Positions 3,879 through 53,863 of a stretch of DNA of 64,000 bases are shown here, in pieces; the stretch's first letter is position 1; each line of letters starts with the position of its first letter. The notes beneath the pieces were generated by a model, which had not been told where the DNA came from, did not search any database, and saw only the letters and a program-made list of their open reading frames with translations. The stretch is taken from contig JAXDPE010000044.1 of assembly GCA_034668565.1 (NCBI GenBank), forward strand, positions 997 through 64,996. Reading direction: 5' to 3'. A program made the translations under genes and the position numbers. Source of the DNA: Sphingomonadales bacterium. GTDB lineage: Bacteria > Pseudomonadota > Alphaproteobacteria > Sphingomonadales > Sphingomonadaceae.

Positions 3879-4253
3879 TCACATCGCGGCCGCGGCTCGC
3901 TGGTCGGAGAACCATTCGTTCACCTTGCGGCCGAAATGGGCGATCGCCGACATATTGAAGAAATGCATGCCGCCGAGCACGATTACGGCGAGGCCGACCT
4001 TGCTGCTGAGGAATCGGATCGCCTCGGCCGGGGTCGTCGGCTCGGCCCCCAGGCTGAGGGTCAGAGTGATGAAGCCGATATTGACGAGGTAGAAGCCGAC
4101 CACGAGCAGATGGTTGGTCGAATTGGCGAGCTCCTCGTTGTGGCCGAAGCACTGGACCAGGAAAACCTTGCCGTTGCGCGACAAAGTGCGGGCCACCCAG
4201 ATCGTGATGGCGAGGGTGATGAGCAGATAGAGGCCATAGGCGATCTCGACCAT
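3879..4253 (-). CDS. hypothetical small membrane protein (downstream of the GbsR-type regulator)
   Basis: 124 aa with 3-4 TM segments (LYLLITLAITIWV, LLVVGFYLVNIGFITLTL, VGLAVIVLGGM). An operator-like palindrome lies 25 nt upstream. Confidence 0.6.
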   Translation of the reverse strand: MVEIAYGLYLLITLAITIWVARTLSRNGKVFLVQCFGHNEELANSTNHLLVVGFYLVNIGFITLTLSLGAEPTTPAEAIRFLSSKVGLAVIVLGGMHFFNMSAIAHFGRKVNEWFSDQRAAAAM

Positions 4254-4277
4254 TCAAAGTTCCTTTCTCTTCGGTTG

Positions 4278-4295
4278 TTTCTGTAAACACTGAAA
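4278..4295. promoter_or_regulatory. operator-like palindrome TTTCTGTAAACACTGAAA
   Basis: Half-sites TTTCTGT/ACTGAAA match 6 of 7. Near-identical to the perfect palindrome at 4897-4914, just upstream of the regulator gene start. Confidence 0.4.
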
Positions 4296-4335
4296 ACTAC
4301 AGGCGTGGAAAAGGGCTGTGTGCGGTCTGTGGCTC

Positions 4336-4887
4336 CTATTTGGGGCTGGGCTTGCCGGCGCCGGGAATGAAGCGGGCGACCTTGCCGCCGAGCTTCATCA
4401 AGGTGACGAGGGTCGGCTTGGGCAGGCCGCGAACCTGCTCGTACCAATCGCCCAGGGTGGAAATGAATTCGTGCATCCGGGTGATGCGCTCGCGCACATG
4501 CCGCGGTGCGCTGTCGTCTTTCGCCAGCCTGGCCGAAAGCTCCGCGAGGAGGGCGACGGTCGGGTCGATCTCGCGCCGTTTACGCTCCGCGACGATCCGG
4601 CTCAGCATCTCCCACAGATCGGTCTCGGCCGTGAAATGATCGCGCCGGTCGCCCTCGATATGCACCCGGCGAACGATCCCGTAGCCCTGCAGCTCCTTGA
4701 GGCCGGTCGAGACGTTGGATCGCGCGAGCCCGAGCTGCTCGACGATATCGTCGGCGGGAAGGGCTCGGTCGGACAGATAGAGAAGGGCGTGGATCTGAGA
4801 TACCGACCGATTGACGCCCCATTGCGTGCCCATCTCTCCCCAATGGAGGACGAAGGCCTTGGCATCCGGATGATCGATCACGCTCAC
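4336..4887 (-). CDS. GbsR/MarR-type winged-helix transcriptional regulator
   Basis: WGVNRSVSQIHALLYLSDRALPADDIVEQLGLARSNVSTGLKELQGYGIVRR matches the wHTH of the GbsR/MarR class. GTG 4885-4887 is preceded by AAGGAA, and the ORF track ATG at 4938 is the alternative start. Confidence 0.8.
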   Translation of the reverse strand: MSVIDHPDAKAFVLHWGEMGTQWGVNRSVSQIHALLYLSDRALPADDIVEQLGLARSNVSTGLKELQGYGIVRRVHIEGDRRDHFTAETDLWEMLSRIVAERKRREIDPTVALLAELSARLAKDDSAPRHVRERITRMHEFISTLGDWYEQVRGLPKPTLVTLMKLGGKVARFIPGAGKPSPK

Positions 4888-4914: not shown

Positions 4915-4960
4915 TAGCAGAACGGCCAAGGATGGCAAGCCTCATTTCCCTTGAACCAAT

Positions 4961-5053
4961 CCGTCATTGCGAGGAGCGAAGCGACGCGGCAATCCAGAAG
5001 CGGCGGCCGGGACGAACGCCGACCTGGATTGCTTCGCTTCGCTCGCAATGACG
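4961..5053. repeat. palindromic MITE/REP-like element, family A
   Basis: CCGTCATTGCGAGGAGCGAAGCGACGCGGCAATCCAG ... CTGGATTGCTTCGCTTCGCTCGCAATGACG. Other copies lie at 35905-35990 and 37947-38032. Confidence 0.85.
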
Positions 5054-25696: not shown

Positions 25697-25780
25697 CCGT
25701 CATCCCGGCGAAAGCCGGGACCCCAAGACGAGAAGTCTCGGCGGGTCTCCCCGAGGTCCCGGCTTTCCGCCGGGATGACG
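25697..25780. repeat. palindromic MITE-like element, family B
   Basis: CCGTCATCCCGGCGAAAGCCGGGACCCC ... GGTCCCGGCTTTCCGCCGGGATGACG. It fills the gap between two convergent stop codons. Confidence 0.85.
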
Positions 25781-27986: not shown

Positions 27987-28069
27987 CCGTCATCCCGGCG
28001 AAAGCCGGGACCCCAGAACGAGAAGTCTCCACGGGTCTCCCCGAGGCCCCGGCTTTCGCCGGGGTGACG
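27987..28069. repeat. palindromic MITE-like element, family B
   Basis: CCGTCATCCCGGCGAAAGCCGGGACCCC ... GGCCCCGGCTTTCGCCGGGGTGACG, between convergent stops. Confidence 0.85.
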
Positions 28070-30384: not shown

Positions 30385-30481
30385 AACTTCGGCGAAGCCG
30401 AAGGCCGGAATCCATGAACACGGCCGGTCGACATCCTGACACGCCGGTGTTCATGGATCCCGGCCTTCGCCGGGATGACGG
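30385..30481. repeat. short palindromic element (CCGGCCTTCGCCGGG arms, nested GAACACCGGCG hairpin)
   Basis: ...GGCGAAGCCGAAGGCCGGAATCCATGAACACGGCC ... CGCCGGTGTTCATGGATCCCGGCCTTCGCCGGGATGACGG. Confidence 0.65.
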
Positions 30482-30535: not shown

Positions 30536-31534
30536 ATGAACAAAGTCGCGCCCATCCAGATCGGCCCCGTCCGGATCTCGTCGCCGGTCATCCTGGCGCC
30601 GATGACGGGCGTCACCGACCGGCCGTTCCGAAAGGCGGTCAAGCGCTACGGCGCCGGGCTCACCGTCACCGAGATGATCGCCAGCCAGGCGATGATCCGC
30701 AAGACCCGCCAGTCGCTCCGGAAAGCCGACTGGGACCCGATCGAGGATCCGGTCTCGATGCAGCTCGCCGGCTGCACTCCGCTCGAAATGGCCGAGGCGG
30801 CGAAGCTCAACGAGGATCGCGGCGCGGCGATCATCGACATCAACATGGGCTGCCCGGTCCGCAAGGTCGTCAACGGCGACGCCGGCTCGGCGCTGATGCG
30901 AGACTTGAAGCTGGCGGCCGAAATCGTTGATTCGACGGTGAAAGCCGTGAAGGTCCCGGTCACGCTCAAGATGCGCATGGGCTGGGACCATTCGAGCCTG
31001 AACGCCCCCGAGCTCGCCCGGATCGCCGTCGATCTCGGCGTCCGGATGATCACCGTCCACGGCCGCACCCGCAACCAGATGTACAAGGGCGAGGCCGACT
31101 GGGCCTTCGTCCGCCGGGTCAAGGAGGCGGTCGAGGTGCCCGTCATCGTCAACGGCGACATCTGCACCCTCGACGACGTCGAGACGGCGCTCGCCCAGTC
31201 GGGTGCCGACGGCGTGATGATCGGCCGAGGCGCCTACGGCCGCCCCTGGCTTCTCGCCCAGGCGATGCACTGGCTGGCGACCGGCGAGCGCCTCCCCGAT
31301 CCCAGCCTCGACGAGCAGTTCGCGGTGCTGATCGAGCAATATCGCGACATGCTCACGCTCTACGGTCCGGAGGTCGGCGTGAACTGCGCCCGCAAGCACG
31401 TCGGCTGGTATACTCGCGGCCTCCACGGCAGCGCCGAGTTCCGCAACGCCTTCAACAAGGAAGGCGATGCGAAGCGGGCCGAGGCGATGCTGTATGAGTT
31501 TTATGCGCCGTGGCCGAACCGCGCCGCCGCCTGA
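30536..31534 (+). CDS. dusB: tRNA-dihydrouridine synthase B
   Basis: [25 protein letters not shown] and TVHGRTR motifs. ATG at 30536. In the usual position upstream of ntrY/ntrX. Confidence 0.93.
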
Positions 31535-31551
31535 ACTGCACGGAAACAGCT

Positions 31552-31576
31552 CGGCCCGACGACAATCTTCGGGCCG
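31552..31576. terminator. 8-bp GC-rich hairpin between the convergent dusB and small ORF
   Basis: CGGCCCGA-CGACAATCT-TCGGGCCG. There is no strong T-tract, so function as a terminator is uncertain. Confidence 0.3.
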
Positions 31577-31594
31577 CCAGACTGCCTACGAATT

Positions 31595-31744
31595 TTATGG
31601 GATTTGTGTGCAGCCGTCTGGGGTGCAGTAAAAAGTCATGCAACCGCTCTCATTACAGATTGTGATTAATCTGCCTGTCCGCTGTGCATAGGTCGGCGCC
31701 AAGGGCAACGCCAAGGCCACTAATGCGAAAAGAGCCTTTCTCAT
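31595..31744 (-). CDS. candidate small secreted cysteine-rich peptide (49 aa; below the ORF-track cutoff)
   Basis: My translation: MRKALFALVALALPLAPTYAQRTGRLITICNESGCMTFYCTPDGCTQIP*. GGGGA lies 7 nt before the ATG. Signal-peptide-like N-terminus with TYA-Q site, and a regular CX4CX4CX4C spacing. Confidence 0.45.
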   Translation of the reverse strand: MRKALFALVALALPLAPTYAQRTGRLITICNESGCMTFYCTPDGCTQIP

Positions 31745-31824
31745 ATCTAATTCCCCATTGATTAGAGCTCAAATGCCCTGAGGCAATGTGACATAAGATT
31801 CTTATTGCTTCAACAGATCAGTTA

Positions 31825-32006
31825 CTGGCTCGGGCGTTACCGCAGCGCGATTGGAATGAACTGTGCCCGCACGCATGTCGACTGGCACATCTCCGGGTTT
31901 CAGGGCTCGGCCGAGTTCCGCAACGCCTTCAACAAGGAAGGCGAAGCGGGCGGAGGCGATGCTCTACGAGTTTTACGCGCCCTGGCTGAGCCGGGCGGCG
32001 GCTTAG
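31825..32006 (+). pseudogene. decayed duplicate of the dusB 3' end
   Basis: [32 protein letters not shown] parallels dus[34 protein letters not shown] 35-nt identical core (GCCGAGTTCCGCAACGCCTTCAACAAGGAAGGCGA) is followed by a 5-nt deletion that shifts the frame. Confidence 0.75.
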
Positions 32007-32032
32007 CGCATCGGGCGCTGAAATCCGCATCG

Positions 32033-32119
32033 CCGTCATGCCGGGCTTGACCCAGCATCCACCTTCTTCCGGACACTGGCGGAAAGAAAGGTGGACCCCG
32101 GGTCAAGCCCGGGGTGACG
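32033..32119. repeat. palindromic MITE-like element, family C
   Basis: CCGTCATGCCGGGCTTGACCCAGCATCC ... GGACCCCGGGTCAAGCCCGGGGTGACG. Confidence 0.8.
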
Positions 32120-32235
32120 ATCCAGGTTCTGCGCATTCCATCCTTGCGGCTCCATCCGTCCGCACTGCGGCCAAAGGAGCCTTTGACGCTACATACTGTG
32201 TTCTTTTTGCCACAATGTTGTGGTAGCGCGGTTGT

Positions 32236-34512
32236 GTGAACGCGGAACTTCCGATCCTCCCCGAATCCAACCCAAGGTGGCGCCGGCGGCTTTCGGTGGC
32301 ATTGAGGCGCGGACGTTTCATGCCGCTGGTCGAGGCTGCGACCCTGATCGCGCTACTTGCCGTGGCGACAGTCAGCTACTTCATCATCACCGAGGAAGGG
32401 TCGCCGGAAACGCTGCTGACCCCGCCCATGGTCGCGGCCCTGCTGGTGGCGAACCTCGTGCCGGCGATGGCGCTGATGGTCCTAGTGGCGCGCCGCTTGG
32501 CCATGCGCCGAGCGGCGGAGTCGCCGATCGGGGGCAGGGGACGATTGCACGTCAGGCTAGTGGCGCTATTCTCGGTCATCGCCAGCGTACCGACCCTGCT
32601 CGTCGTGATCTTCGCATCCTTGCTGTTCCAGAGCGGACTGAATTTCTGGCTATCGAACCGTGCGCAGACTGTGATCAAAAATGCTCAGGAGGTGGCAACC
32701 CACTACCGAAATGATCAGCGCAACGAAGTTCAGCTCGAAGTTCAGACCATGGGTAAGGACGTCGTGGGATGGGTCAACGAGCGTGGGTTCGACGATCCGC
32801 AGTTCGACGATTTCATGGTCGATCAAACCTCTCGACGTTATCTCCTCGAGACTGCACTTCTAACGATAACCCGCACCGGAGAGATCCAGATGCAGGGCGG
32901 GGTGAATTTGTATGATCGGCCGCTCGAGGATCGTTTTCCCGCGTCTACCTTGACGAAATTGAAGGCGGGGCAGGCAATAGCGAAAGAGGCAGGCGGCGAT
33001 CGAGTCGAAGCGGTTGTCCGGTTAGACCCGCAAGCGCTGGTATTCGTCTACGGGGCTCGCAAGGTAAATGCGCGGCTCCTGAAGCTGGCCGAAGAAGCTC
33101 AGAGCGCGGCCAGCGACTATCAGAAGACGCTCGCGCGAGCGCGCACTCTGCAGTTCCGGTTCAACGGTATAATGCTGCTTGTGTCGCTGCTGATCGTGGG
33201 TCTTTCCATCTGGATCGCTCTCAAGCTGGCCGATCGCCTGGTTCGGCCGGTCGGCGAGTTGGTCGATGCCGCCCGGCGGATCACCGCGGGCGATCTCACC
33301 ACCCGAGTCACCGCCGGCGAGCTGACCAGTCGGGTCACCGGCATGCGCGTGCAAGACGAGATCGGCATATTAGGGCGGGCGTTCAACCGGATGACCAAGC
33401 GCCTGGAGGAACAGACCGGCGATCTCGTTTCCGCCAACGCCCAGCTGGAAAGCCGACGCACCTTCATCGAGGCCGTGCTGTCCGGGGTGACCGCCGGTAT
33501 CATATCGGTCGATCAGGAGCGAAACGTCCGCCTCATCAACAGCTCGGCCGAGGCGTTGCTCAAGACCGAGCGGGGCCAGGCCGTCGGCCACAAGCTCGCC
33601 GAGCTCGCGCCGGAGCTCGACGCCCATCTCGACGGCGATCTGCGCGAGGACATCATCCAGTTCGCGTCCGGGGGCGAGCCGCGTACACTGGCCGTCAAGC
33701 GGGTGCGCGTGGAAGGAGGGCACGTCCTCACCTTCGACGACATCACCGAGCAATTGCTCGACCAGCGCCGGGCCGCCTGGTCGGACGTCGCCCGGCGGAT
33801 CGCCCACGAGATCCGCAACCCGCTGACCCCGATCCAGCTCGCCGCCGAACGGCTGCAGAGGCGCTACGGCAAGGAGATCACGTCCGACGCGGGAACGTTC
33901 GAGAAGCTCACCGGCACGATCATCCGCCAGGTCGGCGACCTTCGCCGGATGGTCGACGAATTCTCGTCATTCGCGCGGATGCCCAAGCCGGTCTTCCGCG
34001 AAGAGAAGATCGCCGACATCGTCGGGGAATCGCTCTTCCTCCATCAGGTCGCCCATCCCGACATCGCCTTCAGGCTCGACTCGCCCGATCCTTCGCCTCT
34101 GCTCGTCTGCGACCGCCGCCAGCTCGGCCAGGCGCTGACCAACGTCATCAAGAACGCGGTCGAGGCGATCCAGCAAAAGCGGGAGGACGGACGCAAGAGC
34201 GGCGACGACCGGGTCGCGGTCGCCATCCGCGACACCGAGAACCGGATCGTGATCGAGGTCGCCGACACCGGCATCGGCCTGCCCGCCGAGCGCGGCCGGC
34301 TGACCGAGCCCTATATGACGACCCGAGTGAAGGGCACCGGCCTCGGCCTCGCCATCGTCAAGAAGATCGTCGAGGAGCATTTCGGCAATATCGAGTTCGA
34401 CGATTCGGCCGGGGGCGGCACGCTCGTCAGGCTCGTCTTCGACGCCGAAGCCCTCGCCCGACTCGCCGGCGCCGCCGCCGAGCAACCCCAGAGCATATCG
34501 GCAGACGGATAG
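32236..34512 (+). CDS. ntrY: two-component sensor histidine kinase NtrY
   Basis: N-terminal TM block, HAMP, PAS, H-box AHEIRNPLTPIQLAAERL, and an ATPase domain with GTGLGLAIVKKIVEEH. The GTG 32236 start is uncertain, with an alternative ATG at 32320. Confidence 0.9.
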   Translation: MNAELPILPESNPRWRRRLSVALRRGRFMPLVEAATLIALLAVATVSYFIITEEGSPETLLTPPMVAALLVANLVPAMALMVLVARRLAMRRAAESPIGGRGRLHVRLVALFSVIASVPTLLVVIFASLLFQSGLNFWLSNRAQTVIKNAQEVATHYRNDQRNEVQLEVQTMGKDVVGWVNERGFDDPQFDDFMVDQTSRRYLLETALLTITRTGEIQMQGGVNLYDRPLEDRFPASTLTKLKAGQAIAKEAGGDRVEAVVRLDPQALVFVYGARKVNARLLKLAEEAQSAASDYQKTLARARTLQFRFNGIMLLVSLLIVGLSIWIALKLADRLVRPVGELVDAARRITAGDLTTRVTAGELTSRVTGMRVQDEIGILGRAFNRMTKRLEEQTGDLVSANAQLESRRTFIEAVLSGVTAGIISVDQERNVRLINSSAEALLKTERGQAVGHKLAELAPELDAHLDGDLREDIIQFASGGEPRTLAVKRVRVEGGHVLTFDDITEQLLDQRRAAWSDVARRIAHEIRNPLTPIQLAAERLQRRYGKEITSDAGTFEKLTGTIIRQVGDLRRMVDEFSSFARMPKPVFREEKIADIVGESLFLHQVAHPDIAFRLDSPDPSPLLVCDRRQLGQALTNVIKNAVEAIQQKREDGRKSGDDRVAVAIRDTENRIVIEVADTGIGLPAERGRLTEPYMTTRVKGTGLGLAIVKKIVEEHFGNIEFDDSAGGGTLVRLVFDAEALARLAGAAAEQPQSISADG

Positions 34513-34515
34513 ATC

Positions 34516-35904
<1,389 letters not shown>

Positions 35905-35990
35905 CCGTCATTGCGAGGAGCGAAGCGACGCGGCAATCCAGCTTCCGGCCTCGGCGCCACTGGATTGCTTCGCTGCGCTCGCAATGACGG
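35905..35990. repeat. palindromic MITE/REP-like element, family A
   Basis: Starts 1 nt after the ntrX stop, with the same arms as 4961-5053 and 37947-38032. Confidence 0.85.
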
Positions 35991-36124: not shown

Positions 36125-36622
36125 ATGGCCGACAAGGTCAACAACCTCCAGGATCTGTTCCTGAACGGCCTTCGCCGGTCGAAGACTCCGGTGACCATGT
36201 TCCTGGTCAAGGGCGTGAAGCTGCAGGGCATCATAACCTGGTTCGACAATTTCTCGGTGCTCCTGCGCCGGGACGGCCAGGCCCAGCTCATCTACAAGCA
36301 CGCCATCTCGACGATCATGCCCGCCCATCCGATCGACATGGGCGAGATCGAGCGCGCCTTCGACGAAGGCGGCGCCGTCAAGAAGCCGGCCTTGCTCCAG
36401 GAAGCCTTTCTCGGCGCCGTCCGCCGCTCGGGCGAGCCGGTCACCATGTTTCTGGTCAACGGCGTGATGCTTCAGGGAGAAATCGCCGCCTTCGATCTGT
36501 TCTGCATGCTACTCCAGCGCGACGGCCTGTCGCAGCTCGTCTACAAGCACGCCATCTCGACCGTGCAGCCGGAACGGCCTGTGAGCTTCATGGAGCAGGA
36601 TGACGAGGAGCCGGCCGCCTGA
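36125..36622 (+). CDS. hfq: RNA chaperone Hfq, tandem two-domain form
   Basis: Two complete Sm-like modules: [57 protein letters not shown] and [57 protein letters not shown]. Confidence 0.9.
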
Positions 36623-37946: not shown

Positions 37947-38032
37947 CCGTCATTGCGAGGAGCGAAGCGACGCGGCAATCCAGCGGGCCTCGGAGGCCGC
38001 ACTGGATTGCTTCGCTCCGCTCGCAATGACGG
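37947..38032. repeat. palindromic MITE/REP-like element, family A
   Basis: Lies between the convergent hflX and mazG stops, with the same arms as 35905-35990. Confidence 0.85.
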
Positions 38033-53764: not shown

Positions 53765-53780
53765 CGGTGCGCGAGTTCTC

Positions 53781-53863
53781 CGTCGTCCCTGCGAAAGCCG
53801 GGACCCCAGGACGAGACGTCGCGGCGGGTCTCACCGAGGTCCCGGCTTTCGCCGGGATGACGG
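53781..53863. repeat. palindromic MITE-like element, family B
   Basis: CGTCGTCCCTGCGAAAGCCGGGACCCC ... GGTCCCGGCTTTCGCCGGGATGACGG. Confidence 0.8.

Follow-up and report, generated by a model that had tools for sequence, protein, structure and literature searches.

The stretch of DNA analysed here (the window, 64,000 nucleotides) belongs to a 93-kb contig of a JGI metagenome (3300044739, Ga0467042_0000126), and a DusB protein identical to the one that it encodes is recorded at NCBI as MEA3010069.1. On the basis of DusB similarity, the host is assigned to Allosphingosinicella (Sphingomonadaceae). DusB homologues span 83-94% identity, the closest matches being 91% identical at species level and 94% among metagenomic sequences. 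The genes of the region are ordered ispDF (minus strand), dusB (30536-31534, plus strand), ntrY (32236-34512) and ntrX (34516-35904). The dusB gene is an intact reading frame of 332 amino acids, as long as in relatives, and is separated from ntrY by 701 bp. The last part of this interval (32166-32235, plus strand) is the ancestral dusB-ntrY spacer, delimited by blastn and by alignment with the related loci L081, L083, L086 and L001. Its conserved ntrY-proximal sequence (...TGACGCTACATACTGTGTTCTTTTTGCCACA...) is placed 3' of a second copy of the dusB end, and a conserved motif (...TGACGCTACATACTGTGTTCTTTTTGCCACAATGTTGTGGTAGC) stands immediately 5' of the ntrY GTG start at 32236.

A strongly conserved motif, ACTGTGTTCTTTTTGCCACA(N)TTGTGGTAGC, was also observed at 32190-32232, ending about 10 nt upstream of the ntrY GTG. 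It is found at the homologous place of L001-L009, L081, L083, L086, L090 and L093 and displays dyad symmetry (TGTG...CACA and CCACAA..TTGTGG); a role as ntrY promoter or operator is probable. Further along, a low-G+C stretch (0.52) at 32636-32876 falls within the N-terminal sensor region of ntrY, the least conserved part of the gene among relatives (57-76% identity), and a direct repeat of 167 nt with 71% identity (36146-36312 and 36395-36561, 249 nt apart) lies 3' of ntrX. A candidate tRNA-linked island near 14 kb was discarded, only an ordinary peptidase gene and an ABC-F gene being present there.

The last ~184 nt of dusB (31351-31534, copy 1) are repeated in direct orientation at 31828-32006 (copy 2), 477 or 472 nt further on depending on the side of a short deletion in copy 2. 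Positions 31351-31471 and 31828-31948 are 74% identical, and positions 31469-31530 and 31941-32002 are 84% identical; a repeat of 180 nt with about 75% identity is far above chance expectation. Both copies include an identical block of 35 nt, GCCGAGTTCCGCAACGCCTTCAACAAGGAAGGCGA, which the window contains in exactly two places (31433-31467 and 31910-31944, plus strand), with no extension on either side; the 78 nt to its left align ungapped at 62% identity. Directly after the block, five nucleotides (TGCGA) are missing from copy 2, which shifts the frame. Since this deletion sits between GCGA repeats, it resembles the product of replication slippage. An initial annotation of the window, made from the sequence alone, had described the second, diverged dusB terminus, the identical 35-nt core and the frame-shifting 5-nt deletion, and alignment bore out all three.

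The block of copy 1 contains a perfect 7-6-7 palindrome, CGCCTTC-AACAAG-GAAGGCG, at 31447-31466. The number of such palindromes expected per 35 nt is 0.015, a figure that applies to a palindrome spotted post hoc; its form, that of a tyrosine-recombinase core site, counts in favour of the crossover proposed below. Around the block, in the zone 31427-31495, only six of 64 positions differ between the copies, and both carry the codons AAG CGG, which are present in no relative. The shared codons and near identity of this zone do not fit the crossover proposed below neatly, and require of it either gene conversion nearby or a donor element already adapted to this lineage. An 81-aa gene called by JGI at 31805-32050 (plus strand) corresponds to the displaced dusB frame continuing beyond the 5-nt deletion; it gives a weak match to the Pfam Dus profile (positions 250-292) and is almost certainly no real gene.

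Between the two copies lies a spacer of 293 bp (31535-31827, G+C 0.491) without similarity to 80 related loci, plasmids or phages. A foreign composition is supported: nowhere else in the 64 kb is G+C as low as in the insert (0.45 at its minimum over 200 nt), and the third-position G+C of its small open reading frame is 0.58, against 0.91 for dusB. For positions 31561-31860 the low value given initially stands, with the hand count of 148 corrected to 147 of 300 (0.490); the corresponding values are 0.675 for dusB and 0.671 for the whole window. The small reading frame itself (31595-31744) is indeed present, on the minus strand, and is the only cargo of the insert. It is a putative gene, uncalled by the JGI gene caller, with a GGGGA motif 8 nt upstream of its ATG, and its 49-aa product is predicted to consist of a Sec-type signal peptide, MRKALFALVALALPLAPTYAQ, and a mature part of 28 aa with four cysteines, RTGRLITICNESGCMTFYCTPDGCTQIP.

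No homologues of this 49-aa product were found by word-index search, in Pfam or in PHROGs. A scan of metagenomes with back-translated patterns gave 600 pattern hits and no confirmed one, the signal-peptide patterns having probably saturated the scan. An exhaustive HMMER search of 1.84 billion proteins returned four hits, all of them long proteins (484-1756 aa), three of which matched in 7-8 separate stretches; all four were judged spurious. RNA folding revealed a G+C-rich hairpin of 8 bp (CGGCCCGA...TCGGGCCG) at 31552-31576, 18 nt past the dusB stop and 19 nt past the stop of the small reading frame. It is possibly a two-way terminator; it has no T-run and was left unflagged by a terminator scan. 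The folding z-scores of the insert (-1.7 and -2.1) were unremarkable, and no promoter was detected by a sigma-70 scan of 31300-32400. The ends of the insert show no inverted repeats (best local score 6). An IS element or MITE was accordingly rejected as a candidate, terminal inverted repeats being absent and the duplication being 180 nt long and diverged, not of the short target-site type.

On the far side of copy 2, an 86-nt REP-like palindrome occupies 32034-32119 (-65.7 kcal/mol, z -6.1). The only hits of the Rfam search, sub-threshold and miRNA-like, fell on it. The palindrome is missing from the spacers of relatives, as is the whole 138-nt segment 3' of copy 2 that includes it, and it is probably a separate insertion, judging from its resemblance to other elements of the window. 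Intergenic palindromes ending in CCGTCAT...ATGACGG, belonging to several families of 70-90 nt, were indeed observed at 25697-25779, 27987-28069, 30399-30469, 35905-35990, 37947-38032 and 53780-53862; one of them directly follows the ntrX stop and another lies just 5' of dusB.

Comparison with sister genomes shows that the segment is an insertion. The spacer between dusB and ntrY measures 80-90 bp in 15 related Allosphingosinicella loci (including L001, L004-L007, L009, L081, L083-L087, L091 and L092), among them the three closest relatives, whose DusB is 94% identical. These empty sites agree with the proposal that an insertion splits the dusB-ntrY junction. Two readings that the initial annotation had named as contrary to its own can also be set aside: an ancient duplication common to all relatives, since none of the 90 related loci checked carries a second dusB tail, and a low-G+C segment conserved as a universal dusB-ntrY spacer, since no match to it occurs in 80 loci. 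Across 80 Sphingomonadales species, dusB is tightly followed by ntrB or ntrY, and no integrase or island was found at its 3' end. In most Sphingomonadales, ntrBC stands between dusB and ntrYX; dusB is directly followed by ntrYX in L001-L009, L017, L020, L025, L041, L043, L048, L050 and L051, that is, in Allosphingosinicella and a few others. Two apparent exceptions were rejected as candidates. Locus L058, without ntrY after dusB, has a different gene order and no integrase, and the odd DusB C-terminus of protein P0137 is not a junction, its contig L087 (Ga0456421_02183) being ridden with frameshifts. In this apparently error-rich assembly, ntrY, ntrX and the dusB tail are split into several reading frames.

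As the source is a metagenome contig, the structure could have arisen during assembly, with a short sequence, either circular or a strain variant, threaded into the chromosome path through the shared 35-mer. The contig of the closest relative, L081, stops 86 nt past dusB, which hints at local assembly trouble. However, the final k-mers of standard metagenome assemblers are longer than 35 nt, so that a repeat of this length falls below them. L086 is no nearer to one flank than to the other, the DusB with the WPN tail is recorded in both NCBI and JGI, and the junctions from insert to left arm to core must in any case occur in real DNA. An artefact is therefore considered highly improbable.

Copy 2 is a chimera. 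When its substitutions were compared with 11 relatives and copy 1, those unique to it numbered 15 in the 78 positions left of 31904 and two in the 103 positions on its other side. Likelihood is highest for a change point at 31904, six bases upstream of the identical block; its likelihood ratio was reached in three of 2000 permutations (Fisher p = 1e-4). The left arm (31828-31903, plus strand) is a dusB-like pseudogene fragment by both its divergence and its codon-position pattern. Of its 78 positions, 30 differ from copy 1 and about 25-29 from each relative examined, and DusB residues found unchanged throughout 135 homologues are altered in it (ARKH to ARTH, GWY to DWH). Its mismatches to copy 1 are spread 9/9/12 across codon positions (19.2 nonsynonymous, 10.8 synonymous), which is the pattern of untranslated DNA drifting as a pseudogene. 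The core and the tail to its right are undecayed. Apart from the 5-nt deletion, the displaced dusB tail (31945-32006, plus strand) encodes the ending of nearly all relatives, and with nine of 63 nucleotides differing from each of L081, L086 and L001 it is typical of the clade. The description of the second copy as decayed thus holds for its left arm and fails for its core and tail.

The differences between the two tails are of another kind. Nine are synonymous and two nonsynonymous (pS 0.59, pN 0.04), and 10 of the 14 mismatches fall on third codon positions. Being nearly all silent, these differences indicate that both tails diverged as working gene ends, in separate lineages. This weighs heavily against a tandem duplication that arose locally at the dusB end, with filler DNA between the copies, and was followed by decay of the downstream copy. 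The direct orientation of the repeats, just 477 bp apart, would suit such an origin, but a ratio of nine synonymous to two nonsynonymous changes is impossible for a non-coding copy, the decay is very uneven along copy 2 with its change point at 31904, the filler would have to be of foreign composition, and the arrangement is absent from close relatives. A tandem duplication is barely credible on these grounds.

An almost undecayed displaced tail beside a decayed arm implies that the decay of the arm preceded the joining of the two. The same order of events follows from the amount of divergence: the arm has accumulated at least 0.19 unique changes per site, while the synonymous divergence of the whole gene from L081 and L086 is 0.24 in total, so that the arm has diverged more than the host branch allows since its split from these two relatives, both of which have empty sites. 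The unevenness of copy 2 also bears on one-sided homologous recombination completed by illegitimate joining, in which a linear fragment from a related bacterium, arriving by transformation or through a gene-transfer agent, would have paired by homology within the dusB tail, been joined illegitimately upstream at its other end, and left copy 2 as the residual native 3' fragment. The identical block of 35 nt is long enough for RecA pairing, no integrase is present, and sister species with unrelated small genes in the spacer show that donors with extra DNA after dusB exist. A residual native copy should nevertheless have decayed evenly, whereas 15 of 78 positions of the arm carry unique changes and only two of 103 in the rest, and the insert is unlike any known spacer content. 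This origin is regarded as quite unlikely.

Evaluation of which tail is native could not be based on the gene tree, which is nearly a star, nor on synonymous sites, neither of which singled one out. The tail of copy 1 differs from L081 at eight of 63 positions and that of copy 2 at nine; copy 1 has the synonymous states CTG/TAT/TAT, as in L081 and L093, and copy 2 has CTC/TAC/TAC, as in L001 and L083. Since the synonymous sites are non-discriminating, the assignment is made from the topology, which designates copy 1 as the foreign tail and copy 2 as the native one. The ending of copy 1 (WPNRAAA) is found in none of the 135 DusB homologues, and the ending encoded by copy 2 (WLSRAAA), which adjoins the ancestral spacer, is common to nearly all of them. 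According to this assignment, dusB would be native as far as about 31426-31467, and its last 22 codons (31468-31534) would have been supplied by the inserted DNA. The full-length dusB frame and the displaced tail beside the ancestral spacer fit the earlier proposal of a replacement 3' end with the displaced original left behind.

Taken together, these data make it probable, in our view, that a single reciprocal exchange of the Campbell type left this locus as its scar, the partners being the chromosome and a foreign circle of DNA with an old dusB end truncated on its 5' side. The insertion, the chimeric make-up of copy 2 and the contrast in selection between its two sides are shown by the data; from the present anatomy we infer that the donor was circular, where the exchange fell, that a deletion followed later and what kind of enzyme acted. 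The donor would have consisted of its own arm, core and tail (arm', core and tail') and the 293 bp, and the exchange would have taken place inside or right beside the identical 35-nt block, for which the copy at 31433-31467 marks the likely crossover region. As a result, dusB would be native until the block and would then continue into the incoming tail' (31468-31534, WPNRAAA). The incoming DNA after tail' would comprise the hairpin, the minus-strand 49-aa reading frame, the region upstream of this frame and arm' (31828-31903). Beyond arm' the block would appear a second time, joined to the original tail (WLSRAAA) and, ahead of ntrY, the original spacer. The remaining unit of 472-477 bp could be what was left when a larger element was later deleted, or a tiny non-autonomous element from the start. 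A later slippage deletion of 5 nt in the displaced tail would effectively have locked the insert in. Recombination from block to block would now give a frameshifted DusB of 345 aa, and because such recombination would disrupt dusB in this way, the insert is probably fixed.

A different history would place the event further back in time. The insertion would be old and would have decayed in place at its arm, its right part (core, tail, spacer and ntrY) having been overwritten from a relative, or the whole structure would have been imported from a sister species through allelic replacement. Several observations are in line with this: the tail of copy 2 is an ordinary clade member and not clearly of its own lineage, the 138 nt after copy 2, palindrome included, are likewise missing in relatives, L081 and L093 share synonymous states with the tail of copy 1, and relatives could have lost the insert cleanly through recombination across the repeats. 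Yet at least two extra events are required, and 15 empty sites against a single occupied one would imply many precise losses. A sliding identity analysis detected no switch of the nearest relative across the insert. An initial insertion with a dusB fragment would still be needed. An old event of this kind is therefore judged unlikely.

For the preferred Campbell-type crossover, a tyrosine integrase and RecA acting on the longest identical stretch are about as likely as one another. Thirty-five identical bases within a segment of 25-40% divergence are also where RecA would cross over, and one RecA-driven exchange within the block accounts for the anatomy just as well. Classical attP sites can do without homology upstream of the crossover, and the 78-nt arm' therefore looks more like a captured piece of gene than like a streamlined attachment site. 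On the other hand, a tail under purifying selection joined to a decayed upstream arm is the expected mark of DNA that occupies this gene end again and again, which speaks for a mobile element rather than for a chance piece of chromosome. Neither in nor beside the insert was an integrase or any other mobility gene found. No further copy of the insert, of arm' or of the WPN tail surfaced in the collections consulted, and blastn of the insert produced no match among plasmids and phages. Degenerate patterns of the WPN tail and of the peptide gave no match in IMG/VR. In JGI metagenomes, the WPN tail pattern gave two chance hits outside dusB; the collection searched lacks the window's own contig, which makes this a weak negative. 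The initial idea of a miniature or eroded integrated element is consequently upheld for the anatomy and not for a mobile element or integrase as the agent, none having been found, and the donor element or full-length island that blastn was expected to reveal did not appear among plasmids, phages or the 80 related loci.

It is also conceivable, although very unlikely, that the 0.47-kb unit is complete and represents a non-autonomous miniature cassette made of a secreted-peptide gene and a dusB-tail attachment site, with its recombinase encoded elsewhere. If so, the secreted-protein genes found in the same spacer of sister species would be related cargo of the same system. In L002, L003, L090 and L093, the dusB-ntrY spacer is about 390-480 bp long, low in G+C, and contains a small gene for a predicted secreted protein on the plus strand (L002:5072-5386, L003:5088-5345, L090:4357-4620 and, frameshifted, L093:~4073-4370). 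The products are 72-93 aa long and share a motif of the form ~YTSVTVN..ST..Y.Y.DG..FT. This family, to which proteins P0139-P0142 are assigned, counts six members (L002, L003, L090, L093, P0141 and P0142) among 5.8 billion protein clusters. As far as these searches indicate, it is apparently confined to the genus and, for the four members with known loci, to the dusB-ntrY locus.

The 49-aa product of the window shows a faint resemblance to this family, scoring 2.5 bits against its profile, a score equalled or exceeded by 31 of 2000 shuffled sequences and 12 of 3646 background chunks, and its reading frame lies on the strand opposite to that of the sister-genome genes. No duplicated dusB tail is present in L002, L003, L090 or L093. 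After the inserts of L002 and L003, no displaced dusB tail was detected above the shuffled background, nor were direct repeats. In L002, the last ~25 nt of dusB (within 4950-4999; ...APSLMKTAA*) stand out from the remainder of dusB by their unusual divergence and A+T-richness; another residue takes the place of the conserved Trp, and the low-G+C insert follows without a break. This dusB end may be another replaced tail, here without a displaced copy.

SGI1 in trmE exemplifies islands that target a protein-coding gene at its 3' end and supply it with a substitute terminus (PMC8409611), and cis-mobilizable elements (CIMEs) have been defined as decayed derivatives of integrative elements that lack an integrase (PMC5704250). 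As in both, foreign DNA in the dusB insert is flanked by direct repeats derived from the target. As with 3'-end islands, dusB is kept intact by a supplied tail under purifying selection, with the displaced end on the far side, and, as in CIMEs, genes for integration and transfer are absent. The insert thus has the structural features of a CIME: its flanking repeats come from the target, relatives have empty sites, and the replacement end is coding. CIMEs described so far measure kilobases, whereas this insert is ~0.47 kb long with one orphan reading frame. Unlike short identical att sites, its repeats extend over ~180 nt and are diverged, with a decayed upstream arm, and, in contrast to 3'-end islands and CIMEs, neither a cognate integrase nor a parent element was found in the collections searched. 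It is a small example that works like a known kind, and not a demonstrated member of a named family.

The dusA-associated integrase (DAI) islands offer a second comparison. They enter the 5' end of dusA through attachment sites of 19-28 bp, always with an integrase, and rare relatives occur in dusB and dusC (Farrugia et al. 2015, PMC4482086). The target is likewise a tRNA-dihydrouridine synthase gene, kept whole by a replacement end within the inserted DNA, but the insert described here lies at the 3' end, has no integrase reading frame and shows no sequence relationship that we could find. RecA-dependent Campbell integration and homology-facilitated illegitimate recombination resemble it in the single crossover, placed where a diverged homologous segment has its longest run of identity, and in the duplication of that segment around the incoming DNA. 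Unlike a random fragment integrated by RecA, the incoming segment combines a long-decayed arm with a selectively maintained tail, which suggests a carrier already associated with the dusB end in the past rather than a random piece of chromosome. Integron cassettes are similar in being ~0.5 kb long, with a single small reading frame and a recombination site and no recombinase of their own; here, however, no attC-like structure and no nearby integron integrase or attI are seen, and the end of a housekeeping gene is targeted. The likeness to gene cassettes is one of scale only. The event is of an ordinary kind, unusual here in its small size and in the missing integrase.

The reach of this finding is limited, and no long-standing open question is affected by it. 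The locus nevertheless provides a small and clean example in which an imported gene end and a decayed one can be told apart by their codon-position pattern. The dusB-ntrY spacer of Allosphingosinicella emerges as a variable spot, repeatedly occupied by small low-G+C genes for predicted secreted peptides. In the present genome, two strong hairpins now separate dusB from ntrYX, the nitrogen/redox two-component genes, and could uncouple their transcription. More generally, the 3' end of dusB joins the ends of housekeeping genes known to accept foreign DNA together with a replacement tail.
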